64,000 bases of DNA from Botryllus schlosseri (Eukaryota). Positions 19,198 to 55,384 of this stretch are shown in pieces (within the stretch, counting starts at the first letter, position 1; each line of letters opens with the position of its first letter). The DNA lies in NCBI GenBank assembly GCA_051294905.1, contig CM119372.1, positions 36,396,001 to 36,460,000 on the forward strand, written 5' to 3'. Made by a program: the position numbers and the translations under genes. The notes beneath the pieces were generated by a model. It was given only the letters and a program-made list of their open reading frames with translations. It did not search any database and had not been told where the DNA came from.

Positions 19198-22100
19198 TCT
19201 ACACTAACGCCAAATCGGGATATACGAGGATGATGCAAGGAACCGCTATCATGGTCAAAGATATACATAGAGGTAAAGTTATAAATCATCGAATAATGAT
19301 AGAAAATCGAACCCAATCCATCACAATAAAAGAAAAGGATTGCATAATAACGGTTGTCAATATATATAGCCCTTCAGGGAACAATGCCCAAAAGAAACGA
19401 GACAAACTAAGATACTACTCACAGCTGGAATTGGAACTAGAAAAGATAGATACGTCAATCATATTAAGGGGTGACTTTAATCTAATTCTAGAAAGTAAAG
19501 ACTCTAAAAGAAAAGAAAGAATCTACGAAACAGCTGAAGCAAATCAACTAAGAAAAGTCATTAATGAAAATAAACTCATGGATGCGTATAGACATAAATA
19601 CCCAACAGCTGACACATATACGCATTTTGGCCGCACGAACAATGCCAAGAGATTTGATAGAATATATGTGACCGAAGAACTCTACGAGCATGTGAAACGT
19701 GCAGGGCATGAAAATAACAATGTAGCAGACCCCGCGAGCCCGTATATCGAGATTATTTTCGATGATACTGCGTCTAGCAGAGGGGCTACGTGGAAATGCA
19801 ACAACGCGCTGCTGGCGGAGAAGAGCTACATACAAGTAATTACTAATCTAATTGACACGAGAGAGGCAAGCGTCGATGACGCAGTAGACTTACAACAATG
19901 GTGGGACAGCACCAAAAACGCGATCGCGAAAACTAGCAAAAACTACGGGACACGCGAAAGAATCACGAGAGCTAAGGAAACCAATCTCGAAACCACCAGA
20001 AACCGAATGAGGATCATAACGAAATACGATAATTTTGAAGGTGAAGGCAATATTCGGGAATTTTGGTCGCGACTAAAAGTCAGAAGAAAGATGATAAAAC
20101 TAAACCAACTCGAGAAAAGAAACGGGGTAGTAACTGAGGACAAAACTGAAAGAAGTAATGAAATTTGCCACTTCTATACAGAACTGTGGGCAAAAAAGAA
20201 CGCAATATCAGACCAGCGACAAGATGAGATCCTCGCCGATTACAATCCAGGCGAAAATCTAGAGCTCGAAATCATTGCAAAATTCGATACGATCACCAGA
20301 GAAGAAATATGGCTAACACTGAACACCATGAATAAAGAAAAGGTACCCGGCCAAGACGGACTGACAGTAGAGTTCTATATAAAGTTCTGGGAAAAGATAA
20401 GCAGAAGATTATATCAGGTGATTAATACCGCACTTCTCTTTGCAAAATTTCCAGGAAGCTGGGATCGAGCAAGAGTTACGCTAATCCACAAAGGTCTCGA
20501 CAAAAAAGAGATTCGAAACTGGAGACCAATCACTCTGCTGCACATCGATTATAAGATCTTCGCAAAAATACTAAACAGGAGACTACTAAACGAACTAGGG
20601 GACAGGATCGGAAGATCACAAAAGGCCGCGATCCCAGGGCGAAAGATGGACGACATCCATAGCAACGTGAGTGCGATTACGAGATATTACAATGAAAAAC
20701 AAAGCGAAGGATACATCCTGACAATTGACTACAAGAAAGCATTTGACCAAATCAACCATGATATGATGTTTAAAATAATAGCTAAACTCAAAATATCGAA
20801 TCCCATTCAAAAAGCCCTTCAAAAGATATATGAACATCCTACGGTCCAAATAGAAACCAATGGCACGATGGCGCCACAAATTATGCTGGGAAGAGGCATA
20901 CGGCAAGGATGCCCATTGCCCATTAAGCATGACCCTCTATGCGATATGTGCAGACCCCATAGCGAAATGCATAAAAGCGAACCCGCGGATCAACGGCATA
21001 AAAATCGGGAGTTTTGAGCAAAAATAGATCAATTCGCCGACGACACCACGTATTACGTAACCAACCTAGAATCTATTAACAATATTCTCATCGAGCATAA
21101 CAGATTACAAGAGGCAACGGGGCAAGAAATCAACCCGACGAAAACGGCAGTTCTCCCGCTGAATCCGAAATCGAAGAGGATAATAGAGAAAACAAGACGC
21201 AACGACAAATCTCGTACTAACATAACGATACTAGGAATAAGGTATGGAGAGAATGCACAAAACCTAAACTACGAAAATTTAATCAAAAGAATCCGAAGAA
21301 ACGTAAGCCAAATTAAAGGGCAACGATTAAGCTGGATCGGGAAAATAAAAGCAACGAAAGCGATGATTGCACCAAAGATAACATACACAGCTTATGCATC
21401 GCCGCTAACTGCCGAACAAGTACGAGAGATACAGGGAGAACTATTTCGAATTCTCTGGGCGCCGGAAAAGATCGAAGCAAAAAGCCGGAGTACTCTTATA
21501 AAAGAAAGAAAACACGGAGGTATAGGAATGATTGATATAGTGACCCTTATCAAGGCAAAAAGATTCAAACGAGCCCAAATTCTAAGTATAATAACAGAAC
21601 CGGAGCAAATATGGCATCAAGAAGCAATATGTAACATGGGCACTAGTATAAAAAATATTAACCCAGCGTTATATCATAATAATATGCCACACAGGTACAA
21701 GCCAACGAAGAGCTATACGGAAGAAATCACAACATAAAGCAACATAATAGCCGAATGCGAGGATCCTGAAAGAATCCCGCAAAGAGAAGTTTATGAAATA
21801 TTGCTAAATACCGTAACCGAGTCCAACCAAGAAATGCAGCACTGGAAGGAAATATGGCTAACATCCTCGGCCATAACTAAATATATTAATAACCAAGAAA
21901 GAGAAATATCATACCGAATAGTAACCGAAGCTATATTTACAGGATCAAGAATGAAAAAGGCAAAATGGACCCACAGGAAAAATATGTCAAATAAAAGCCA
22001 ATGCAAACTATGCGGGATAGAGAATGACACGATGAAGCACATGTATGTAGAATGCCAAACATACAAAGAAATCTTTTATTTTATCAGGAAAGAACTCGAA

Positions 22101-38114: not shown

Positions 38115-38950
38115 CGGGGGTGTCAAACTCAAATTGCGTCGCGGGCCGGGTTCAAGCCTTCAAATCGCTCGCGGGCCGGACCAGTCAACTGATTCCAAAA
38201 TGTTTCCTCGTGCTCTTGCTTTTCACTTGAATACCTTGAAAGCATATATAGATGGTACGCGGATCATAGGATTTTAAAGTATAGCAAGTCGCAAAACCTC
38301 TATTCGCGAACAATGGAATTGGCAAAAATACGATGATGGTCAGTTGAATACAGTTAAGAACTGCTGAAACAGTGGCGTTAACGAAGATATAAGTTGCCAT
38401 ATCCTATGCTCCCTTTGATTTAGTCGTGGTCTGGCATTAGCCCTGCGTATGGGTTGCGAGGAATACAACAAATTTAATTGAAAACGCGGACGTTGGAGTT
38501 TGGTTTATTATTAATAAACCGCGAGTTCGGTTTCTCTCAAGTCTGGGGATATATTGGGTCGAAATTGACACAGCGGTGCGACCATAAATCTTTTAATTAT
38601 ATATTTATGCAACCAATCTATTCTCCCTGTCCACGACGGTTCCGCATTGGCGTTTTCGCTTCTGTGAATAACTACCTTCTTGGTCCATATTTGTATCAAA
38701 CTACGGACTTGGTGTGCACTTTTTGCCTTCTTGAAATTGGATGTTGATTTCACCGACTTGTTATTATGTAACTAGAGTGAAACCACAGCGATGTAGTCGG
38801 GAAATGGGATTATGAACATGGAAGTATTTCCTGCAAAATATCTCAACATTTGTTACAAATGTGCTGGAAAATATATAAAAATAATTCAATCTACTCAGAA
38901 TTGCATCGCGGGCCGGATGCGGCCAGCTGGCCGTATGTTTGACACCCCTG
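38115..38950. mobile_element. hAT-type MITE
   Basis: CGGGGGTGTCAAAC...GTTTGACACCCCTG with GCGGGCCG subterminal motifs. Flanks GGGTTAAC / GGTTAAAC. Confidence 0.65.
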
Positions 38951-39354
38951 GGTTAAACAGTGGTCTTTAGCTATATATATGTTTAAATGCTTTCCGTAAA
39001 AATTCAACCCCTATTGAAGCGAGGCTCGCGAAACGTTTTCGTTGGGCCCGTGACAGCCTGGTGAAAATGTTTACCTTTTTTAAGCCAACATCTAAGCTAA
39101 CATGAAAAACATACGAAATTCATCGTATCCATCGCAAGCGAACTTGGTGATTTATTTTTCGTCAGCAGCTACCCGAACGGTACAAACACGGCAGATTTAG
39201 CGCAATGTTTCCAAAACGGAAAGTGGCGTCCTAATTCCTTTTGATTTAGTTGTTTTCTAACCAGTGTTAAATAATTGATACGGAAGTAGCCCGCGATGCT
39301 TTACCAAAGTGTAATGCGGTCCGCATTCGACATAGTTTGGGCACATCTAAATAT

Positions 39355-39526
39355 TGTATTGTATTAATCGGCACGACACAGTGGAGCTTATCGCCTTTCA
39401 AGGCCTTGTGCTCCACGACATGAATTTCATAAAGTTCATTGGTCTTTTGCTTTTTGTCTTGTTGGGAACGTCTTTTTCATTCTCTCTCGCAGTCATCATC
39501 ATTGTCTCTCGCTCCCATGCGTCCCC
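39355..39526 (-). mobile_element. tRNA-derived SINE, 3' half
   Basis: Minus strand: GGGGACGCATG...TGTCGTGGAGCACAAGGCCTTGAAAGGCGATAAGCTCCACTG...TAATACAATACA. Colinear with the uninterrupted SINE tail at about 28812-29033. Bounded by CACATCTAAATAT at 39342-39354, the partner of the 13-bp TSD. Confidence 0.8.
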
Positions 39527-40069
39527 ATCGTGAGTAGTATAGTAGATCGCTCGCATGACGCGCTTTTTTGCATGGGGTAGTATAGGGCCCGCTCACACGG
39601 TGCCTCGAAACTCGTATTGGTGACCCCACCCTTTTGACCCCCCCTTCCGCTGGTGACCTGCCATGCGTTCTTATGGGATCTCTGGTGACCCCACCCTTTC
39701 AGGTATAGGGCTCGCTCATGACCTGCCGTGAAAACTCGTGTTGGTGACTCCACCCTTTTCGAGTCCCTATCGCTGATGACCTGCCGTATCGTCGGTGATA
39801 CCACTCTTTCAGGTATACGTTGTGTCGATGACCTGTCTGATAACGTTACGGGTATAGGGATCTCTGGTGAAGTGGTGTTGAATATCAAGTATAGTAAACA
39901 GTGACGCCATTACTTAGTATGTATATTCAAAAATATTATATATGACCGATTTGAGTTATTCCCAACGTTTACGGCGAGCGCGACTTTAATATATCTTTAT
40001 TCTTATGGCCGCGGTGGCATGTCGTACTCTCAGGTATAGGCTGCGTTGACATGTCGTAATTTCAGTAAA

Positions 40070-40720
40070 AAGGTGTGAAATAGTTGGTTAAATCTAGGAA
40101 TCAGCCGCATGGTAATGTTTTGGTAATTAGTTTGCCACAGAGCCGGCGTAGACGGCGATTCGAATACCAACAATATCCGCGTTCACATAGTAACACTTCA
40201 AAAAGTTGTGAAATATTTGTAAAATCCTACGAGCGCTCACAAGATAACACGTCAGACATAGCCATCTCTCGCGGTTTGATGTTACAGAGGTAGGAATCAC
40301 GCACAAGTAATATTTTGTCACAGAACCGGCGTAGACGGGGATTCCAATACCAGCAATAGCCGCGTTCACAAACTAACACTTCAAAAAGGCGTGAAATAGG
40401 TTGCAAATCCCGCGATCGCTGACAAGATAACACCTCAGACATAGCGATCACTTGTGACTTGCTGTTACATACATTCCAATCGCCACAATGTAATATTTTG
40501 ATAATCAGTATGTCACAGAACTGGATTTCACTGGTAAAATTGAATAACTAACAAATAACAGAACCGTCGCAGACGGTGATTCGAATACCGACAAATTCTC
40601 ACTTATTTCTGACCCAACCCTAATCCTCTGTGAAGTTGACGCTTATTCAAAAAGGTGTGAAATAATTGTAAAATCCTACGTCGGTGACGCGATAATGCAT
40701 CAGACATAGCGATCTAGGTA
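40070..40720. repeat. About 183-bp diverged repeats in the left arm (mirror at about 51700-52350)
   Basis: CAGA(G/A)CCG(G/T)CG(T/C)AGACGG...ATACC at about 40138, 40321 and 40559. CAGACATAGC recurs three times. Confidence 0.75.
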
Positions 40721-43700
40721 TAGTACGGTGTCGGAATCCATTCGCGAGATGTTCTATAGGTATATTGAGGTAATCCGAAACGAAATATTTTGACTTGGCG
40801 TAGTGTGGGTTGAAATAGGATTGACAAACATGACTACCATCTTTCCAAGTGCCATTTCGAAATTATACGCACATTGATTTGAAACAAATAATGAAACATT
40901 ACAACTCTATTCACGATCCGTCTTTCCGTTTGTCAAAGAGACATTTTAACACCTTACCATACTCAAAAGAATTATTCACAACAATACCCGATGTTAAAAA
41001 TATAGTTTTAACTTCCTTGATTATATCACTACAACTCGCAAACTTGAATTAATTCATCCTGGTTGTATTCATATGACCGATAATTTTTATTCAACTGTAA
41101 AGGTCGTTACTATTCTGTAAGACAAAGTATTTACTAATCGGTGCATATACGACTTGACATAAACCTATTTCATTTTGAGTATACGAGATTTGAATGTCTG
41201 AACAATAAACTGAGAATTAAATTATCACAAGTGAATCCGTATATTACAGCGTAAAAGATATTGGAATGTCAGCAACTCTGTACGGTCATAGTTACTACCA
41301 CATTACCTAATTTACCCGGCCAACTCGTCATGATCATCCCTGAAATCAACACAACATGACCACTGACTTGAGTTAACCCAAAACATCATAAAGTTTTAAA
41401 TCCACTTGTAGCTTACGTATTATTTGAATGCGGGTTATGTTTTATTGCAATCGAGTTAACGGAAATAGTATTAAGGCTCGACATTTTAACATTTTACCAT
41501 ACTCAGTCAATCAGGAAAACCTTGTCAAGTAAATCCGTTTGTAACTTACCCGACCAACTCAAACAGTATCAGTATGAAAAACAGCCAAGCATACACGAGT
41601 CCATACAATCACTAAAACCTAAAATCCATAACAAGTTCGGTTTTACTCATATCCCTACGACGCGTCTTTTTTCAACTTTAAAAGTCGTTACTATTCTGTA
41701 AGATAGAGGAATTACTACGCGGTATATTCTGCAAGACAAAGTTATTATTACTCGATATATTTTGTAAGACAAAAGTAATTTCCACTCGGTGCAGGCGACT
41801 TGAGATTAACATAATATGTTTGAGTATACGAGATTTGAAAGTCTGATCAACGTATAGTTGCGACTTCATTTCTTACAATCGAACGCTGCTGTTATATCGA
41901 AAGTTACCATTCTGTAAACATAAGGATTGATACATTGATGTGCCATATGTAATAGTTGATCATGACTTGATTATTAAATTATTCGTTTTAATTAGACCCG
42001 GCGTTGTGGTAAAGGTTATTATGACAACAACAATCTTTTCAGTACCGTTGTTATTAACATATCGAGTTGTAAAACTATGCGTGTCTGAAATGTTCATGAT
42101 TGAAGAAATTATTCCACCTTGGTACATATCACTCTGCGTATCGCGGATATCAGAAAATATTTTACAAATGTAATTGTTTCCAGTACCCAAACTAAAGATG
42201 AAACAACAATTTCGTTTGCTGATTAACAACCGGTGCAATACTTTATTGTCGGAATCTGCGACATCGAATTGAAACATACGCACATCACACAGTACGAAAA
42301 TATCACTTTGGGCTCCGGAGCGGTGTCATTTAATCTGTGTTAAACTCTGTTCACACTCTCTGTCGAAAATGCGTGAAATGTAAAACCATTAAGAGGTCAC
42401 ACTCTAAGACTTTGATCATCAAAAAAGTAAATAGAGGTATCTTTACTGGATCGATTCTATTCAACTGGTCTTGGTTAATACAAAAAAAACCATAACAATA
42501 ATATCGAAGTATGTGCTACACTGAAATCTACAAAAATGTGTTTGTATTGCTGCGATATCGATTTGAACCTCCAGAATAATTGTCATCATGTAACCAAACT
42601 AAGGAAAGTCGTTGTCAATTTGTATGATGTTCACTGATTGCATACTAGAACTATTTGTGCAACGCACACGATCAAAGAAATTGGAAATTTTCCCATTGCC
42701 ATTCGTCACAATATTCGGTCACTAAAATACGTTACTTGGATGTGATTGAATCGCTGGTAGTTAACTCGATAAATCAAACCCCTAAGAAATTTCACTCACT
42801 CATTAGATATTAAACAGTGTCGCCTAATCGGCGTGGGTCGCTTTTTATAAATACAAATCATACCTGGCCAACAGAAAACAATTTTCACTAGCTTGGTAAT
42901 GAAACCGAAGTCTCCATTCGATATTTTGTTTGTGTCAAATACTTTACAATGAACACATTTGCGTGGTTGAGCTTTACATCATCAAGCTGTTATTTGTAAA
43001 TCAAGATTTCGGGAAACTTGTAAATGTATCGTTTAACTAACCGACATTTAGTGATTGGGGAACATACCAAACGATACACATCCATCTCCGAAATACTGCA
43101 TTGATCTTCATTTCCATCATCGTGATAAGCGAAGTACATTTGTTTTGAATTCATAACAATAGGCTTTTCTATGACATGATAAATTATTGACAAGTTCTGC
43201 TTAGAAGATTGGTTGCATATCACGAAAAATAATATACCACACATATTATTACTGTTACTCCATTCATCGGTATTTTTTCCGTTGTCGATTTTCAAACGAG
43301 TAAAATTTATTACTTGAGTCGCTCTGCTTACTATATTTAAATGTAAACTCCCCCCGTCTTTCAACAACAAACAATGTTAAAAAAGTATGCAATCAAACAC
43401 AGCAAGTTTTACGATACTAATTATTTTCCCACATAACCCATTTCTTACCGAAGACATATGAAATATATTCATGTTACACGAAAATATTCGCTCATGCTAC
43501 AAACCTATACAATGATTGGTGGTGCTTTCAAACTGTTTCGATACCTCAAGAACTTTATTGTCTGAATGGTTGTTCATGTATCGTAATAATCAAGTAGTTC
43601 AACACAGAACTAGTATTAACAGAAACACCAGAGTTGTTTACACAAAAGTTTGTATGTGTACAGTATACGGATACCATGTGTAAGACCAGCACAATTGTGG

Positions 43701-44589
43701 TATCCATACGAGTTTAGTTAACACAATTTACGACACCGAGGTCGCGTCATCTTTCGTAAGACAACAAACCAAGGCTTCAGGATATGTCCATGTCATAGCA
43801 ATAAATCAGCTACTCCAACAACAGAGTGCATATGTTTTCTAGTTACGGTGCTTACATCTTACACACAAATCAATCTACTTTGCTAACGAAAAGTGGTGAG
43901 TCGTCATATGGTTGTCCTCACTAGTAAAACATACTATCATACAAAATGGTCGTTATAGTTTGCACACCAACGGTATATCGTACAAGTAACAAGTCTCGAG
44001 AATCCAGTTATTCAAAAAACGTGAAAGTATTTCTACACCAAGTCGTTATGTTGACGAAAGCGTATATTGTAATATCATGATCGATTTGCATTCGTTGGTC
44101 ACAAACTGTCACTACTCTAAATAATTCTTTTTCGCTCAAACACAAACGCATACTTGTCACCATTCGTTTTCATCAAGCTCGAGTTCAAGAAACTTCTTAC
44201 TACGACATGAATTTTTATTTTTATGTTGTGTAAATAGCTAATAATTAATTCAAGTAACACTATATCAACATCATCGAGTTGTGCTAATAGATTTACATGT
44301 GGTCTTGTGGTTTTCGTCGGGACATACAGCACGAACTAACTGTAGACTCCTCTCTGTTGTACAGCTACTCGGTAATCGAAATGCATTAACATGTAAACAA
44401 CGATCTTGTTTCGTCACACCAAAAATATGTTCACTGTCGCGATACTCCGCACAAGACGTACATAGCCTTTTCACACTCGTAATAGTATACCAACGTCAAG
44501 CGATAACGTTTAACAAGACCAACGACACTGAACCCACGACGTTTACCTATGTAAAATTACCACTTTCACTTGCCAGTCCATCGTTTACC

Positions 44590-45125
44590 TGACTAAACAT
44601 ATTATTTTCCTTTGGAGATCTGACGTTTACCCAGAGTAAGAAACCATTTTCACTTGTAAATATTTTTTTTCCTCGGCTAACAAACCTTTTTTCACTTGGA
44701 AATATATATTTTCTCTGGTTAACAAACCTTTTTCACTTGGAAATATATTTTTTCTCTGGTTAACAAACCTTTTTCACTTGGAAATATATTTTTTCTCTGG
44801 GCAACAAACCTTTTTCACTTGGAAATATATTTTTTCCCCGGGTAACAAACCTTTTTACCTGAGCAACAAACCATTTTCACTTGGTGGTCCGTCGTTTATC
44901 TGAGTAAAAATATCATTTTCCTTTGGAGATCCGGCGTTTACCCAGTGTAACAATACATTTTCACTTGAAAAAAATACTTTTACCTAGAGTAACTAATCAT
45001 TTTCTCCTGGGTAACAAACCCTTTTCGTCTGGAAACTATCATTTAACTGAGTACCAATACCGTTTTCACTTGGAAATACATTTTTTCCCTGGGTAACAAT
45101 ACCATTTTCGTTTGGAAAACGGACA
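44590..45125. repeat. About 41-42-bp minisatellite inside the left arm (mirror at about 47295-47830)
   Basis: Repeating AACAAACCTTTTTCACTTGGAAATATATTTTTTCTCTGGT units. Confidence 0.85.
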
Positions 45126-46191
45126 ACCACACCGGACAATTTGATATTTTTGTATATTGTTACAACGGACAGCGACAAAATATACACCAACAACGACTGC
45201 AATACATTTGTGTAATAGCTTATTCACTTGTTCTGGTGCATCCCATCGAAATCCTCAGTTACCCGCATGCAATGTGCTGTTGTACATCGACGTGTATGTT
45301 TTGGAAATTGGACAATAGGTTTCGACATGTCTGCGATGTCCGGGTTCGTGCTTTGGATTTTCCAGAGTCAAAATGTCTGAATAAAACACCTCCTCGACTT
45401 CGGTAAATGTTTGGCACGCAGATAACGACGGTCGGACATCGACGAATTTATGTTTCCATCGGGCTAACAACTCCGGGTTACTTGTGATTTATCTCACACG
45501 TGTTTACTATGTTGTGTCGCTCTTTATTGATCAATACATACCACACCATTCAGTTTGAAATCGGAAACCCCGAGAAATCGTTAACCGGATCCGGATATCA
45601 ACTCTAAATCGATAAACCACATGCCACACCCCGTGTTTCCATGAAAATTACAAGACATCGCAAAAATCAAGTATACTTCGCTATTATTTGCCCGCACAAG
45701 TAATCACTTAAAGGATGTGTATGACATTACATACATCATGGATAACATCGTGTCTAGCATTACAAACATCATGGGCGACAAATTCGTCTTCTCAAGTCCC
45801 GTCATGCGCAGACTCTGTACATTCAGTGTGGGTATAGATGACTTGGAGATAAACAAACAGACATCTTTGACCGTAACATGGCCTTAGCACGAGAATTCTT
45901 TACACGGGTGCAACGTCGCAGTCAGACATCTTTAACAGTGATTCCGCGTATGGAAATCTTAAATTCGATTGCAGTTTTTGTAATCCGAGTTACTGGGTTT
46001 CTGTGGTGTGAAGACTAAATTCGTGTTGATCCCCGCTGTAAGAGTGTGATGTCCATTTCACACCTAGAGCAATTATAAAACGCATCTTCGAAACTTTTGA
46101 TCTATTTCATCCGCTTGCATTTCGAAACGGATCAGCACCACAAGGCAATTGAAAAAACTTTGTCGTTACCTGATTATATACACGAGTAAGG

Positions 46192-46467
46192 ATGGGACTA
46201 CGCGTAACTTTCCATAGATTCCTCTGGCCTCACACCGTTGTTTTACGACACAGACAAGACGCAGCGGTGGAAATATTGAAAATGAAAAACGATACCTTGG
46301 TTACATTTGATTTGGATTTTACACCTGATGAACCATACACTCGATTGGTGCATTGGGATGACGACTCTATCGTCGAGGTTGAGGGGAAAGAAATGTACAG
46401 ATTTGTTGGTGTCGTGGATATTCAACGAAAATCGGGGTACATGATAGTACATGGTTCGCATATATGA
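46192..46467 (+). CDS. Putative small (91 aa) protein of unknown function in the palindrome spacer
   Basis: True ATG...TGA ORF with globular-looking composition, preceded by TATA-like TTATAAAA (about 46073) and TTATATA (about 46174). It lies wholly in the unique spacer. No homology recognised. Confidence 0.35.
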   Translation: MGLRVTFHRFLWPHTVVLRHRQDAAVEILKMKNDTLVTFDLDFTPDEPYTRLVHWDDDSIVEVEGKEMYRFVGVVDIQRKSGYMIVHGSHI

Positions 46468-49400
46468 CTATGAATGTATCGGTATGCATAATGCTCTGTT
46501 CACTGTATCGATATCACCGATGGTATTTGAACGAATAACCATGTTACGGTCAAAGATGTCTGTTTGTCTATCTCCAAGTCATCTATACCCACACTGAATG
46601 TACAGAGTCTGCGCATGACGGGACTTGAGAAGACGAATTTGTCGCCCATGATGTTTGTAATGCTAGACACGATGTTATCCATGATGTATGTAATGTCATA
46701 CACATCCTTTAAGTGATTACTTGTGCGGGCAAATAATAGCGAAGTATACTTGATTTTTGCGATGTCTTGTAATTTTCATGGAAACACGGGGTGTGGCATG
46801 TGGTTTATCGATTCAGAGTTGATATCCGGATCCGGTTAACGATTTCTCGGGGTTTCCGATTTCAAACTGAATGGTGTGGTATGTATTGATCAATAAAGAG
46901 CGACACAACATAGTAAACACGTGTGAGATAAATCACAAGTAACCCGGAGTTGTTAGCCCGATGGAAACATAAATTCGTCGATGTCCGACCGTCGTTATCT
47001 GCGTGCCAAACATTTACCGAAGTCGAGGAGGTGTTTTATTCAGACATTTTGACTCTGGAAAATCCAAAGCACGAACCCGGACATCGCAGACATGTCGAAA
47101 CCTATTGTCCAATTTCCAAAACATACACGTCGATGTACAACAGCACATTGCAAGCGGGTAACTGAGGATTTCGATGGGATGCACCAGAACAAGTGAATAA
47201 GCTATTACACAAATGTATTGCAGTCGTTGTTGGTGTATATTTTGTCGCTGTCCGTTGTAACAATATACAAAAATATCAAATTGTCCGGTGTGGTTGTCCG
47301 TTTTCCAAACGAAAATGGTATTGTTACCCAGGGAAAAAATGTATTTCCAAGTGAAAACGGTATTGGTACTCAGTTAAATGATAGTTTCCAGACGAAAAGG
47401 GTTTGTTACCCAGGAGAAAATGATTAGTTACTCTAGGTAAAAGTATTTTTTTCAAGTGAAAATGTATTGTTACACTGGGTAAACGCCGGATCTCCAAAGG
47501 AAAATGATATTTTTACTCAGATAAACGACGGACCACCAAGTGAAAATGGTTTGTTGCTCAGGTAAAAAGGTTTGTTACCCGGGGAAAAAATATATTTCCA
47601 AGTGAAAAAGGTTTGTTGCCCAGAGAAAAAATATATTTCCAAGTGAAAAAGGTTTGTTAACCAGAGAAAAAATATATTTCCAAGTGAAAAAGGTTTGTTA
47701 ACCAGAGAAAATATATATTTCCAAGTGAAAAAAGGTTTGTTAGCCGAGGAAAAAAAATATTTACAAGTGAAAATGGTTTCTTACTCTGGGTAAACGTCAG
47801 ATCTCCAAAGGAAAATAATATGTTTAGTCAGGTAAACGATGGACTGGCAAGTGAAAGTGGTAATTTTACATAGGTAAACGTCGTGGGTTCAGTGTCGTTG
47901 GTCTTGTTAAACGTTATCGCTTGACGTTGGTATACTATTACGAGTGTGAAAAGGCTATGTACGTCTTGTGCGGAGTATCGCGACAGTGAACATATTTTTG
48001 GTGTGACGAAACAAGATCGTTGTTTACATGTTAATGCATTTCGATTACCGAGTAGCTGTACAACAGAGAGGAGTCTACAGTTAGTTCGTGCTGTATGTCC
48101 CGACGAAAACCACAAGACCACATGTAAATCTATTAGCACAACTCGATGATGTTGATATATTGTTACTTGAATTAATTATTACCTATTTACACAACATAAA
48201 AATAAAAATTCATGTCGTAGTAAGAAGTTTCTTGAACTCGAGCTTGATGAAAACGAATGGTGACAAGTATGCGTTTGTGTTTGAGCGAAAAAGAATTATT
48301 TAGAGTAGTGACAGTTTGTGACCAACGAATGCAAATCGATCATGATATTACAATATACGCTTTCGTCAACATAACGACTTGGTGTAGAAATACTTTCACG
48401 TTTTTTGAATAACTGGATTCTCGAGACTTGTTACTTGTACGATATACCGTTGGTGTGCAAACTATAACGACCATTTTGTATGATAGTATGTTTTACTAGT
48501 GAGGACAACCATATGACGACTCACCACTTTTCGTTAGCAAAGTAGATTGATTTGTGTGTAAGATGTAAGCACCGTAACTAGAAAACATATGCACTCTGTT
48601 GTTGGAGTAGCTGATTTATTGCTATGACATGGACATATCCTGAAGCCTTGGTTTGTTGTCTTACGAAAGATGACGCGACCTCGGTGTCGTAAATTGTGTT
48701 AACTAAACTCGTATGGATACCACAATTGTGCTGGTCTTACACATGGTATCCGTATACTGTACACATACAAACTTTTGTGTAAACAACTCTGGTGTTTCTG
48801 TTAATACTAGTTCTGTGTTGAACTACTTGATTATTACGATACATGAACAACCATTCAGACAATAAAGTTCTTGAGGTATCGAAACAGTTTGAAAGCACCA
48901 CCAATCATTGTATAGGTTTGTAGCATGAGCGAATATTTTCGTGTAACATGAATATATTTCATATGTCTTCGGTAAGAAATGGGTTATGTGGGAAAATAAT
49001 TAGTATCGTAAAACTTGCTGTGTTTGATTGCATACTTTTTTAACATTGTTTGTTGTTGAAAGACGGGGGGAGTTTACATTTAAATATAGTAAGCAGAGCG
49101 ACTCAAGTAATAAATTTTACTCGTTTGAAAATCGACAACGGAAAAAATACCGATGAATGGAGTAACAGTAATAATATGTGTGGTATATTATTTTTCGTGA
49201 TATGCAACCAATCTTCTAAGCAGAACTTGTCAATAATTTATCATGTCATAGAAAAGCCTATTGTTATGAATTCAAAACAAATGTACTTCGCTTATCACGA
49301 TGATGGAAATGAAGATCAATGCAGTATTTCGGAGATGGATGTGTATCGTTTGGTATGTTCCCCAATCACTAAATGTCGGTTAGTTAAACGATACATTTAC

Positions 49401-52400
49401 AAGTTTCCCGAAATCTTGATTTACAAATAACAGCTTGATGATGTAAAGCTCAACCACGCAAATGTGTTCATTGTAAAGTATTTGACACAAACAAAATATC
49501 GAATGGAGACTTCGGTTTCATTACCAAGCTAGTGAAAATTGTTTTCTGTTGGCCAGGTATGATTTGTATTTATAAAAAGCGACCCACGCCGATTATGCGA
49601 CACTGTTTAATATCTAATGAGTGAGTGAAATTTCTTAGGGGTTTGATTTATCGAGTTAACTACCAGCGATTCAATCACATCCAAGTAACGTATTTTAGTG
49701 ACCGAATATTGTGACGAATGGCAATGGGAAAATTTCCAATTTCTTTGATCGTGTGCGTTGCACAAATAGTTCTAGTATGCAATCAGTGAACATCATACAA
49801 ATTGACAACGACTTTCCTTAGTTTGGTTACATGATGACAATTATTCTGGAGGTTCAAATCGATATCGCAGCAATACAAACACATTTTTGTAGATTTCAGT
49901 GTAGCACATACTTCGATATTATTGTTATGGTTTTTTTTGTATTAACCAAGACCAGTTGAATAGAATCGATCCAGTAAAGATACCTCTATTTACTTTTTTG
50001 ATGATCAAAGTCTTAGAGTGTGACCTCTTAATGGTTTTACATTTCACGCATTTTCGACAGAGAGTGTGAACAGAGTTTAACACAGATTAAATGACACCGC
50101 TCCGGAGCCCAAAGTGATATTTTCGTACTGTGTGATGTGCGTATGTTTCAATTCGATGTCGCAGATTCCGACAATAAAGTATTGCACCGGTTGTTAATCA
50201 GCAAACGAAATTGTTGTTTCATCTTTAGTTTGGGTACTGGAAACAATTACATTTGTAAAATATTTTCTGATATCCGCGATACGCAGAGTGATATGTACCA
50301 AGGTGGAATAATTTCTTCAATCATGAACATTTCAGACACGCATAGTTTTACAACTCGATATGTTAATAACAACGGTACTGAAAAGATTGTTGTTGTCATA
50401 ATAACCTTTACCACAACGCCGGGTCTAATTAAAACGAATAATTTAATAATCAAGTCATGATCAACTATTACATATGGCACATCAATGTATCAATCCTTAT
50501 GTTTACAGAATGGTAACTTTCGATATAACAGCAGCGTTCGATTGTAAGAAATGAAGTCGCAACTATACGTTGATCAGACTTTCAAATCTCGTATACTCAA
50601 ACATATTATGTTAATCTCAAGTCGCCTGCACCGAGTGGAAATTACTTTTGTCTTACAAAATATATCGAGTAATAATAACTTTGTCTTGCAGAATATACCG
50701 CGTAGTAATTCCTCTATCTTACAGAATAGTAACGACTTTTAAAGTTGAAAAAAAGACGCGTCGTAGGGATATGAGTAAAACCGAACTTGTTATGGATTTT
50801 AGGTTTTAGTGATTGTATGGACTCGTGTATGCTTGGCTGTTTTTCATACTGATACTGTTTGAGTTGGTCGGGTAAGTTACAAACGGATTTACTTGACAAG
50901 GTTTTCCTGATTGACTGAGTATGGTAAAATGTTAAAATGTCGAGCCTTAATACTATTTCCGTTAACTCGATTGCAATAAAACATAACCCGCATTCAAATA
51001 ATACGTAAGCTACAAGTGGATTTAAAACTTTATGATGTTTTGGGTTAACTCAAGTCAGTGGTCATGTTGTGTTGATTTCAGGGATGATCATGACGAGTTG
51101 GCCGGGTAAATTAGGTAATGTGGTAGTAACTATGACCGTACAGAGTTGCTGACATTCCAATATCTTTTACGCTGTAATATACGGATTCACTTGTGATAAT
51201 TTAATTCTCAGTTTATTGTTCAGACATTCAAATCTCGTATACTCAAAATGAAATAGGTTTATGTCAAGTCGTATATGCACCGATTAGTAAATACTTTGTC
51301 TTACAGAATAGTAACGACCTTTACAGTTGAATAAAAATTATCGGTCATATGAATACAACCAGGATGAATTAATTCAAGTTTGCGAGTTGTAGTGATATAA
51401 TCAAGGAAGTTAAAACTATATTTTTAACATCGGGTATTGTTGTGAATAATTCTTTTGAGTATGGTAAGGTGTTAAAATGTCTCTTTGACAAACGGAAAGA
51501 CGGATCGTGAATAGAGTTGTAATGTTTCATTATTTGTTTCAAATCAATGTGCGTATAATTTCGAAATGGCACTTGGAAAGATGGTAGTCATGTTTGTCAA
51601 TCCTATTTCAACCCACACTACGCCAAGTCAAAATATTTCGTTTCGGATTACCTCAATATACCTATAGAACATCTCGCGAATGGATTCCGACACCGTACTA
51701 TACCTAGATCGCTATGTCTGATGCATTATCGCGTCACCGACGTAGGATTTTACAATTATTTCACACCTTTTTGAATAAGCGTCAACTTCACAGAGGATTA
51801 GGGTTGGGTCAGAAATAAGTGAGAATTTGTCGGTATTCGAATCACCGTCTGCGACGGTTCTGTTATTTGTTAGTTATTCAATTTTACCAGTGAAATCCAG
51901 TTCTGTGACATACTGATTATCAAAATATTACATTGTGGCGATTGGAATGTATGTAACAGCAAGTCACAAGTGATCGCTATGTCTGAGGTGTTATCTTGTC
52001 AGCGATCGCGGGATTTGCAACCTATTTCACGCCTTTTTGAAGTGTTAGTTTGTGAACGCGGCTATTGCTGGTATTGGAATCCCCGTCTACGCCGGTTCTG
52101 TGACAAAATATTACTTGTGCGTGATTCCTACCTCTGTAACATCAAACCGCGAGAGATGGCTATGTCTGACGTGTTATCTTGTGAGCGCTCGTAGGATTTT
52201 ACAAATATTTCACAACTTTTTGAAGTGTTACTATGTGAACGCGGATATTGTTGGTATTCGAATCGCCGTCTACGCCGGCTCTGTGGCAAACTAATTACCA
52301 AAACATTACCATGCGGCTGATTCCTAGATTTAACCAACTATTTCACACCTTTTTACTGAAATTACGACATGTCAACGCAGCCTATACCTGAGAGTACGAC

Positions 52401-52894
52401 ATGCCACCGCGGCCATAAGAATAAAGATATATTAAAGTCGCGCTCGCCGTAAACGTTGGGAATAACTCAAATCGGTCATATATAATATTTTTGAATATAC
52501 ATACTAAGTAATGGCGTCACTGTTTACTATACTTGATATTCAACACCACTTCACCAGAGATCCCTATACCCGTAACGTTATCAGACAGGTCATCGACACA
52601 ACGTATACCTGAAAGAGTGGTATCACCGACGATACGGCAGGTCATCAGCGATAGGGACTCGAAAAGGGTGGAGTCACCAACACGAGTTTTCACGGCAGGT
52701 CATGAGCGAGCCCTATACCTGAAAGGGTGGGGTCACCAGAGATCCCATAAGAACGCATGGCAGGTCACCAGCGGAAGGGGGGGTCAAAAGGGTGGGGTCA
52801 CCAATACGAGTTTCGAGGCACCGTGTGAGCGGGCCCTATACTACCCCATGCAAAAAAGCGCGTCATGCGAGCGATCTACTATACTACTATCGTG

Positions 52895-53072
52895 GTCTCT
52901 GCTGCCGACTTATAGCGCGGCTCACTTTCAGTCTGGGCTTTTCAATGCACTACCGTAGTAGTGAGGTCGGCGATGAGGAGCCCAGATAAACCTCCGACAC
53001 GTAGACGTTGGTCAGAACCGGGATTCGAACCAGCGTCCATTGGTGTCGTGACTACAGTGTTTAACCAACTGA
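52895..53072 (-). mobile_element. tRNA-derived SINE, 5' half (split by the palindromic element)
   Basis: Minus strand: TCAGTTGGTTAAAC (A-box remnant)...GGTTCGAATCCC (B-box)...GTCGGAGGTTTATCTGGGCTCCTC core...AAGTCGGCAGCAGAGAC. Bounded by CACATCTAAATAT at 53073-53085. Confidence 0.8.
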
Positions 53073-55384
53073 CACATCTAAATATGAGTGGGCATACATT
53101 GCTCACTGCTCAGTCAACAAATGGTTTGCGTTAAAAAGTCACCGGGCAACTTTTTATGGTGGAAATCTAAGCTCAAATATTTGCCAAAGGGGTCCACGAG
53201 ACGAAAACGATTGGAAACCACTGCTAAAATTAAGAAAGCAAGAGGTACATAATCGCGCGAAGTGCTAAAACAAGCAAGTGAAATCAATCTGCCGTAAAAT
53301 ACTCTACTTCATGACAATTTACATCGGTTTTATCACGTATGAGGCGCGTGGCCACTTTCGCTGACCCCGGCTACGCCTATGCGTCGAAACTTGCATTTTT
53401 AGTCAAGAACCTCGTAAATTTGGCTGTTAGGCTGATTAAAGCTCTAGTCGACCTAGCAAGTTCACAATAAATTACGAAGGCAATCTAATTTTTGATGATA
53501 TAACTAATTTTGAGAATTATCTGACGGGGCACTCAAAACCTACTCGCGGGCCGCGGGTTGGCCACCATGCTGTAAATTTATGATTGTAAAATTCGGGTAG
53601 GCTATGTATTAGTTTTCCATGATAGCATTCATATTAGGCCATAGGCACTTTCTGGTACAAACTGATGCTTTCACGACCATTACAATCTATGAAAGAGAGT
53701 AAAATCCGCATAGAGATATATTTTAGGGGTGCGGTGAGCTCTGCTTACCATTTTAATGCGCCTTCTCATGGTGATACACGACAACAGAACTCACTATACA
53801 AATAGAATATATCCCCATAAGGATTGGTGTATTTAGCTTTCTTCTATCCATCGGTTTGGCGTGGAATGTGGACACATCTGATTCAACTATAGCTCCCTCA
53901 GGCCTGGTGCACAAGACCCTAGGAGTCGAGCACCATAAAAACCCCTATATATACATACAATATCATAAAGTCACAATGGCCTGATATGCACCTTACACCT
54001 TACGTTATGGTTGAAATCGGCGAAATACAATATTTGCCTATGCAATGTACTCAATAATATATTGGTCATACGACTAAGCTTTCTACTTTGGATTTTCTGC
54101 AATAGGCAGTAGTTTTGGGATGTGGTTGTATCAGTGAAAACAACCTGTATCTCGGAAACTGAATATATTTTCGGAAATCACCCATTTGCAATACAATGAG
54201 TTATTTCGCTAATGACGTGAATGAGACACCGCCTGCATTTTCCAAAGTAACCGAATCTGATATACCGCTAAAGGACGCGGGTATTCTACTAAATCTAGGG
54301 ACATACTGTTTCATGCGGTCCTGCAAATGGGGCTCCTTTCTTCCCACGTAACCGCAATCGCATCGGCACTCCTTTGTTTTGTTGAAATACAAGAAGAACG
54401 TTCTTGCGTGTTGCATGGTTGTCGTGAAAAATGACGTTGGTGTTCACTCGATTATCCTACTTACTGACCGCAGAAACAACCAAAGTCACCGGAAATAGGA
54501 TGACTCCATTGTAAATACCTATGGTTATTCATTTCGCAGACACTTATGACTCTTTTGCGTCGAATTACGTTAATTTACTCTCGATAGCTCGGTTGGAGCA
54601 AAAAGTATGCGATCACGAAGCGTCCAAGTTACGGCATACGGAACAATATTACAAACGCGGGCTCAGGATCTCGTCTCCTCGCGAATGCCGCCTGCTCACA
54701 ACATCAACGATGTACAACTGGGATGTTAGACATGCGGGCCGCATCCGGCTGGCAAGATGATTTCGTGCGCCCGCGAAGCAATTCTGAGAATATTGAAAAT
54801 GCTTTTATTATCCTGCACATTTCCAGCAAATATTGAGATATTTAGTACGAAATATTTCCATTAAATAAACCTCCGAGACAGAAAATGTCGAGTATGTTCA
54901 TAATCCAATATAACCGCTTGACTACGGTGTTATGGTTTCACTATAGGAACCAATAGGAACAAGTCGTTGACATTGACTCCAAATTTGGAGAAGGCAAAAA
55001 CGTCTACACTCAGTTAAATGTCGATAATTCCTCACAAAACACCCGGAGGAGTAACTTCATATTACGACTGAAACAAATGGAGCATAAAAATATGCGAGGG
55101 CCGCTAGTATTACAGTATTTACTATTTATCGTTTTCCAAGTCAAATCGCAAAATACATTCAAAATTCAGCAATTCGAGTCAAAGTCATAACAAGCGATGA
55201 TGACTTGATGATCGATTTTAATCAACAGCTACCCGATCGGGAAAAATAATTGCCAAATGTAACGCAATGATTCCACAAGGGAAAGCGACACTGAATCTTT
55301 TCGATTTATGATTTTCTAGACAACAGAATAAATTGATACAGAAGTTGCCTGCAGTACCTTGCCAAAGTGCAATATGGTACGCAT

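Follow-up and report, generated by a model that had tools for sequence, protein, structure and literature searches.

A 13.4-kb palindrome in Botryllus schlosseri as one copy of an abundant, probably Maverick-dependent element family with a conserved core gene

A stretch of 64,000 nucleotides (nt) from Botryllus schlosseri (contig CM119372.1; G000:C2:36396001-36460000 in our numbering; hereafter, the window) holds a 13.4-kb element that consists almost entirely of two inverted arms around a short core, which raises the question of what such a giant palindrome is and how it came about. We conclude that it is probably one copy of an abundant, non-autonomous family of palindromes that depends on Mavericks (also called Polintons) and whose core encodes a conserved orphan protein of 91 amino acids (91 aa). 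This reading is carried by the structure of the copies, by their AGTAGT ends and target site duplications (TSDs) of 6 bp, by termini shared with Mavericks, and by a palindromic architecture that has been inherited across diverged subfamilies. Genome counts given below refer to the 495.5-Mb assembly that contains the window, and those termed candidates are unverified first-look numbers.

A repeat search of the window detected the arm pair as two inverted segments (39533-41683/50738-52888 and 41667-45881/46539-50753). The element and its landmarks, in window positions and with the open reading frame (ORF) of the core included, are as follows.

39352..39532, no strand: left half of the host repeat; the right half lies at about 52895-53071
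39527..39532, no strand: left TSD copy, ATCGTG; single copy in the paralogous uninterrupted sites L039 and L040
39533..45881, plus strand: left arm, 6349 bp; colinear with the arms of seven other copies at 72-92% identity
39533..40054, plus strand: Maverick-like terminal region; begins with (AGT)2 and is 91.8% identical to both terminal inverted repeats of the decayed Maverick C9a
40123..40469, no strand: 183-bp tandem repeat, 1.9 copies; the right arm holds a mirrored copy
42860..42870, no strand: approximate mosaic breakpoint; nearest relative 96% outward, other copies 98% inward, both arms alike
44636..45118, no strand: arrays of a 41-42-bp tandem repeat; mirrored at 47302-47784
45882..46538, plus strand: unique core of 657 bp, which forms the central loop of the palindrome; homologous cores elsewhere at 75-99% identity
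46073..46079, plus strand: TATAAAA motif, a candidate promoter element about 115 nt upstream of the ORF start; (C/T)ATAAA is partly kept in divergent copies
46192..46467, plus strand: ORF of the 91-aa orphan protein (P0001), stop codon included; conserved in the core
46539..52888, minus strand: right arm, 6350 bp; inverted copy of the left arm
52367..52888, minus strand: right-arm Maverick-like terminal region; terminates in (ACT)2
52889..52894, no strand: right TSD copy, ATCGTG; single copy in the paralogous uninterrupted sites

In a global alignment the two arms are 99.9% identical but not perfect, with six substitutions (left-arm positions 42824, 44238, 44260, 45267, 45606, and 45852) and a single indel in a T-run at 41666. 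Compared with other copies, these seven differences turned out to be private changes on both arms, and as such they do not decide between a young insertion and gene conversion. The element starts with AGTAGTATAGTAG and ends with CTACTATACTACT, that is, with AGTAGT...ACTACT, and its terminal region holds five GGTGAY subterminal repeats in the first 280 nt. No stop-to-stop frame inside the element is longer than 136 aa, and of the 27 frames in arms and core that reach about 60 aa, none matched a Pfam family at an E value of 0.01 or below. Neither protein-primed DNA polymerase B (pPolB) nor an rve integrase was found in the element by Pfam on these frames or by tblastx against C9a, which gave no match past the first 560 nt; genes for capsid, packaging ATPase, and protease were likewise not found by Pfam and by comparison to this one decayed Maverick, a search in which no capsid profile was used. 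Rfam families were absent from 39000-53500 and tRNAs from 38500-54500. A preliminary description of the locus, made from the letters alone, had already given the arms, the 657-bp spacer, and the ATCGTG duplication, and had noted the missing pPolB, integrase, and capsid genes; all of this held up. The same is true of its assignment of the termini to the Maverick type, since the (AGT)2//(ACT)2 ends and 6-bp TSDs seen here are those that PMC8097293 gives as marks of intact vertebrate Mavericks. A separate observation at the ends concerns a frame of 136-148 aa that runs outward through the terminal repeat past the end of the element (39499-39909 on the minus strand, mirrored at 52512-52958 on the plus strand) and has a similar counterpart in C5g, another copy (L015:313-681); the conserved subterminal repeats, which are G+C-rich, probably give rise to it incidentally.

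Is the palindrome a real insertion? Its target belongs to an abundant repeat, about 360 bp long, that has 1058 candidates genome-wide and shows 85-96% identity among 40 scored copies, the window's own place excepted. In both uninterrupted paralogous copies examined, the flanks abut and the 6-mer occurs once, which confirms the boundaries and the 6-bp duplication independently of the palindrome. These sites bear on the suspicion that the assembly itself created the structure, for instance from a chimeric long read that folds back. Long-read assemblies are known to yield artefacts in the form of near-perfect palindromes, and no long read was found to span arm, core, and arm here. However, the arms carry private changes on both sides, the TSD is perfect and the insertion exact against two paralogous sites, and more than 10 other loci have the same architecture with different TSDs. 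In addition, contigs from two other samples cross the junction between the core and the right arm, with 30 letters on the arm side, one below the bridging criterion. Taken with these points, an artefact appears extremely improbable.

The left flank is covered by reads of the RNA run X23, and six reads of this raw run join the left flank directly to the right flank. We rejected these reads as proof of a polymorphic empty allele, because the flanks belong to the repeat with 1058 candidate copies and the reads may possibly stem from paralogues. A spliced intron was excluded as their source, a GT..AG pair being impossible within the 6-nt ambiguity of the joint. Among the sequencing runs listed for the locus, none is on record as RNA; runs that may be RNA, such as X16, contain pieces of the core. 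Copy numbers were not derived from summed contig depths.

Next, we asked whether the palindrome stands alone in the genome. A genome search with the terminal 300 bp, a check that the preliminary description had proposed, returned 1146 candidates, of which the 40 scored fall in plus/minus pairs 11.5-41 kb apart; the core returned 1076 candidates and the 91-aa ORF 1216. For comparison, 14 palindromic elements were retrieved, along with a longer one whose repeats are short. Self-comparison showed that the simple copies have one plan, with arms of 5.8-6.4 kb and cores of 0.28-1.7 kb, and all 13 elements whose ends were read carry AGTAGT at both ends and perfect, mutually different 6-bp TSDs. Within a copy, arm identity is at least 99.7% in all eight of the simple complete copies for which it was measured, the inner arm of C6s excepted. 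Besides the window copy, the values are as follows.

C11c: within-copy arm identity 99.9-100%
C7f: within-copy arm identity 99.97%
C10j: within-copy arm identity 99.7-99.8%
C11l: within-copy arm identity 99.8%
C6s: within-copy arm identity 99.96% (outer 4.5 kb) and 98.5% (inner 2.1 kb)
C11x: within-copy arm identity 99.905%
C9m: within-copy arm identity 99.913%

In two further copies, C7s and C14s, the palindrome is partly asymmetric or truncated. Arms of different copies are colinear, 72-92% identical, and rich in indels, and their best-conserved part comprises the 41-42-bp repeat arrays at 44636..45118 plus about 600 bp inward of them (mean identity, 0.90-0.93). Despite this heavy indel turnover, element lengths stay at 11.5-14.6 kb across subfamilies, which is compatible with a size constraint but is no demonstration of one. 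Among the 13 TSDs, the central dinucleotide is CG in seven and CA or TG in four, and three duplications contain ACGT; in this small sample, the pattern hints at a weakly palindromic target preference.

The window copy itself is a mosaic. Its outer arm is nearest to a copy on C4 (96%), a likeness that drops to 84% at about 42870, while inward of this point the arm is 98% identical to other copies, and the breakpoint is common to both arms. As far as the sequences go, a mirrored breakpoint, together with the absence of any copy more than 96% identical to the outer arm among the best 40 of 3117 candidates, would fit a recombining population that is turning over. Another copy, C5g, holds a 6.3-kb long terminal repeat (LTR) retroelement inside one arm (L015:5305 to L016:1643). 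Its two 438-bp LTRs are identical, and its gag-pol-like frame is open over more than 1400 aa. An attempt to date the copy through this nested element failed, as identical LTRs provide no age contrast.

The comparison between copies bears on how the palindrome of the window arose. The preliminary description had likened it to snap-back or copy-back defective viral genomes. Read as a sporadic defective Maverick genome, it would have formed at or just before this insertion, by a polymerase that turned back on one Maverick end. The Maverick ends and nearly identical arms would be expected of such a genome, and rearranged forms do occur: C11d (20.9 kb; L012-L014, C11:19810176-19831040) and C12s (24.5 kb; L035-L037, C12:7175697-7200209) hold two cores, with the inner arm and core duplicated in tandem within one TSD pair and with two 91-aa ORFs each. 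The second core of C11d is in direct rather than inverted orientation, however, which points to tandem duplication instead of copy-back, and only 522 bp per arm are Maverick-like in the window copy. Above all, the arm order and a homologous core with its ORF are retained in copies up to 28% diverged, in a family of about a thousand candidates. Since arm order and core are common to diverged copies, the palindrome is ancient and inherited and was not made anew, so that a snap-back event at this locus is largely refuted and, as an account of this insertion, very unlikely.

Which elements, then, share these ends? One is C9a, a decayed Maverick of 23.9 kb with inverted repeats of 736 bp that are 95.6% identical to each other. 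Its pPolB is split over three frames (DNA_pol_B_2, PF03175; 27.6 bits against a cutoff of 25.8), and it further carries a P-loop ATPase fragment and two rve integrase pieces. The first 522 bp of the window arm are 91.8% identical to both ends of C9a; beyond this terminal region, blastn found no match between the arm and C9a. Mavericks are otherwise plentiful in the genome, with at least 91 scored pPolB matches among 349 candidates, about 60 of them with open frames of at least 1200 aa, and in 19 cases such a match has the C9a left-end region at a distance of about 4-8 kb. All five Maverick left ends read near pPolB begin with AGTAGT and have ATCG[C/G]TCG and GGTGA/GGCGA motifs in common, and at one of them (L043), beside an open pPolB frame of 1295 aa, the first 21 nt are identical to the terminus of the window element. 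Of these elements, C9a shares 522 bp at 91.8% and L043 the outermost 21 nt, but C9a is decayed, and the Mavericks with an open pPolB are 68-78% identical to it subterminally. As a side observation, a 206-aa frame upstream of the C9a polymerase (L009:2791-3411) repeats the N-terminal motif block of the polymerase frame (L009:4071-5174).

These shared ends also speak to the alternative that the element is a foldback-type cut-and-paste transposon of another superfamily (FB-like, Galileo/P-like, or MULE-like) with Maverick-like ends by chance. Very long inverted arms, internal tandem arrays, and the lack of a transposase are classic foldback anatomy. FB elements, however, make duplications of 9 bp and Galileo of 7 bp, while the duplication is 6 bp in 13 of 13 elements here. 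Moreover, one Maverick with an open pPolB has the same 21 nt at its terminus, and 522 bp of arm, or 1.48 kb including a gene in the copy C9m described below, are common to elements with pPolB and rve genes. We therefore give a foldback transposon little credence.

A view of the origin of the arms comes from C9m, a 13.3-kb palindrome whose core ORF is 96% identical to that of the window. Its arms match the left end of C9a over about 1.48 kb at 77-91% identity, and this stretch holds an intact 206-aa frame (L048:1247-1864 on the minus strand and L049:5012-5629 on the plus strand) that shares 92% identity with the gene in first place at the Maverick left end; from about 2 kb inward, the C9m arms match the window arm at 77-84% identity. 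This arm gene is widespread. Its protein had 149 stop-free matches among 150 scored in the genome, and about 49 minus/plus pairs were found, mostly 11-12 kb apart, with identical scores and 214-aa frames; a core-ORF match lay between the members in each of the 10 pairs cross-checked. Single matches, with 217-aa frames, adjoin pPolB matches, and the ratio of nonsynonymous to synonymous substitution rates (dN/dS) between the palindrome arm gene and its Maverick homologue is 0.30. The 207-aa C9a homologue (92% identical) of the 206-aa arm protein had no match in Pfam, and the arm protein itself had one database relative and no confident AlphaFold2 fold, with a predicted local distance difference test (pLDDT) value of 38; a likeness to the OB-fold is an impression at most.

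The family thus has a fuller form with three ORFs and a more numerous reduced form without the arm gene, to which the window copy belongs. Because the arms of C9m carry the Maverick left end with its first gene, the comparison supports a beginning of the arms in the head-to-head duplication of a single Maverick end, in an ancient event that would not have taken place at this locus. The preliminary description had proposed such a duplicated end; as an origin this is supported by way of C9m, and in the present copy 522 bp per arm are Maverick-like. The remaining 4-5.8 kb or so of the arms were not traced to C9a.

The core preserves a gene, and the early impression of a gene-less element was mistaken. 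In an alignment of 11 cores from nine elements, the interval 46192-46467 is free of indels in 10, while the remaining core is full of them. C16i has a 1-nt deletion at codon 3, after which the shifted frame is still open. The start codon is kept in all 11 cores and the stop position in nine, the ORFs of C7f and C11l extending two codons to a TGA. Nei-Gojobori dN/dS values were 0.13-0.27 for the deeper comparisons, and differences are enriched at third codon positions (e.g., 28/13/40 for the three positions). Gap-free arm blocks served as a control: over 72 window-frames taken from them, the median ratio of nonsynonymous to synonymous proportions (pN/pS) was 0.86, just four frames lacked stops, and not one combined the lack of stops with a ratio of 0.40 or less. 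Of the 150 genomic matches to the 91-aa protein that were scored, 148 were full length and stop-free. The frame is present in 12 of the 14 palindromic elements, with one internal TGA in C11x, and is lacking in C10j and C5g, which have the shortest cores of the 14. Judged by these codon patterns, the core ORF is shown to be under purifying selection.

The N-terminal 22 residues of the protein are basic and the remainder is acidic. The best Pfam match, TriTu, had an E value of 0.14, below threshold, and a profile search of the PDB gave a best E value of 0.95. A search of 5.8 billion proteins returned just three relatives, of the same length and 70-96% identical; a representative protein library yielded only the protein's own cluster and low-complexity repeat proteins; and the best ESM Atlas score, 0.81, was uninformative. 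Looking up the clusters supplied no names. No counterpart was found in the Maverick C9a, either among 452 frames (best E value, 1.3) or by tblastn. The protein may serve the propagation of the element itself, for instance by binding its repeats or the machinery of a helper.

Selection on a coding frame also bears on the proposal that the palindrome is a hairpin locus, either serving the host or limiting itself, in which read-through of the arms would yield long double-stranded RNA and thereby small-RNA silencing of the family or of the Mavericks that share its ends. The anatomy suits this proposal, in that inverted arms transcribed as a unit would form double-stranded RNA, as does the terminal 522 bp in common with Mavericks. 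Yet one raw RNA run showed no transcription across the arms, with 22 of 25 left-arm bins without reads and three with traces, and TSDs and about a thousand candidate copies show the family to behave like a mobile element. That selection is seen on the protein-coding frame of the core and not on the arms counts against it further, and we consider a hairpin locus highly improbable.

How would an element without enzymes move and multiply? Because ends and duplication length are the same, a Maverick integrase would be the enzyme that inserts it in trans, and since Mavericks with pPolB in this genome have these ends too, it is natural to read the element as mobilised in trans. The protein-primed polymerase of Mavericks probably copies the element as well. 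The near-identity of the arms could reflect young insertions, fold-back of a displaced single strand followed by mismatch repair, or both. A panhandle or racket intermediate has been proposed for protein-primed replicons, and full-length fold-back would be an extreme form of it; intrachromosomal gene conversion would be an alternative route to the same identity. Youth and homogenisation are not exclusive, and the mosaic breakpoint does not decide between them; on the side of youth stand the identical LTRs inside C5g and the private point changes on both arms.

Several points weigh against a Maverick-dependent family with a gene of its own. In the window copy, 5.8 kb of each arm match nothing in C9a, the sole enzyme-bearing element with ends about 92% similar, whose pPolB and integrase are split; Mavericks with an open pPolB share the terminal motif, but their subterminal region is just 68-78% identical to C9a. 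Among the 40 scored of 3117 candidates, no copy closer than 96% to the outer arm, and hence no source copy, was found. Homologues of the 91-aa protein are confined to its own family, AlphaFold2 folds it poorly (pLDDT 40), and no reads fell on its ORF in one raw RNA run, of which about 6% was sampled with a likeness of at least 98% required.

On a more far-reaching version, these palindromes would be genuine satellites, or hyperparasites, of Mavericks as endogenous viruses, with a 13-kb self-complementary genome that the protein-primed polymerase of the helper copies via a full-length fold-back strand, that the helper's integrase inserts, and that the helper possibly packages. Copying through a fold-back strand would keep the arms identical and pass recombination breakpoints to both of them. 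Helper capsids might package the monomer or the two-core forms of 21-25 kb, and C11d and C12s are close in size to the Maverick C9a. With the 91-aa protein as a factor of its own, the satellite would hijack the helper or interfere with it, and the fuller subfamily would add two copies of the Maverick-derived 214-aa protein. The preliminary description had likewise suggested a satellite or defective-interfering role, with an arm duplication that may satisfy a limit on the size packaged in capsids. We regard this version as a tentative possibility that is rather doubtful at present.

Elsewhere in the window, AT skew reaches 0.378 at 20001-22000, far above the remaining window.

Set beside known systems, the element combines traits that are usually found apart. 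Foldback transposons (Drosophila FB, Galileo, and sea-urchin TU) are often non-coding, and their arms evolve in concert. The element resembles them in its hairpin-like form, in which long inverted arms with tandem repeats inside them make up most of the length and the middle is short, and differs from them in the Maverick TSD length and termini, in ends common to self-synthesising elements, in arms of about 6 kb that are mostly non-repetitive, and in a conserved gene in the loop. Adenovirus and linear plasmids are known for snap-back or copy-back defective genomes and for panhandle repair of inverted terminal repeats. As in these, an inverted duplication of one end would keep two origins, and a folded strand could let the repeats template or repair each other; whereas snap-back genomes arise repeatedly de novo in infections, however, the palindromes have one ancient inherited architecture, about a thousand integrations, and a selected gene of their own.

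Autonomous Maverick/Polinton elements, reportedly described by Kapitonov and Jurka in 2006, have the (AGT)2...(ACT)2 termini, 6-bp TSDs, terminal inverted repeats, and terminal sequence in common with the element; their pPolB, integrase, ATPase, protease, and capsid genes were not found in it, and its unique part amounts to 657 bp with one 91-aa orphan. Its length of 13.4 kb falls inside the 12.7-24.6 kb that PMC8097293 gives for intact vertebrate Mavericks, whereas its inverted repeats of 6.35 kb compare with 46-1447 bp there. Butterfly Polintons (bioRxiv 10.1101/2025.02.07.637071) have gene-bearing inverted repeats of about 2 kb. Long repeats with duplicated genes link them to the sister subfamily here, with its 214-aa gene per arm, but they retain a full Polinton gene set, while the present element is almost all inverted repeat and lacks the enzymes. 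Transpovirons (PMC5499653) are elements of about 7 kb, carried by the giant viruses of protists, whose genes specify a helicase-polymerase fusion along with several further proteins; the element is like them by description, a likeness in sequence having been neither found nor looked for, in being linear and capsid-less, with inverted repeats, an origin in the Polinton-like world, and dependence on a larger virus. In full-text searches of the literature, which did not extend to Repbase, we found no palindromic or gene-bearing family of non-autonomous Mavericks, and the phrase "non-autonomous Polinton" itself turned up in a single paper. What is new is a structural and genetic variant of the Maverick-dependent kind, with a core gene, for which a satellite-like biology may be considered.

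Mavericks and Polintons are thought to be viruses that live also as transposons, and dependent exploiters of them have hardly been described. What sets this family apart is the combination of about a thousand candidate copies, Maverick ends, arms that are identical within copies yet diverge between them, and an orphan gene under selection of its own. In sum, the copies would place megabases of perfect 6-kb inverted repeats in the genome of B. schlosseri, which is of relevance to genome stability and to assembly. The family is a natural setting in which to study the replication of protein-primed elements and the homogenisation of their inverted repeats, and it lets one ask whether the endogenous virus-like elements of animals have satellites.

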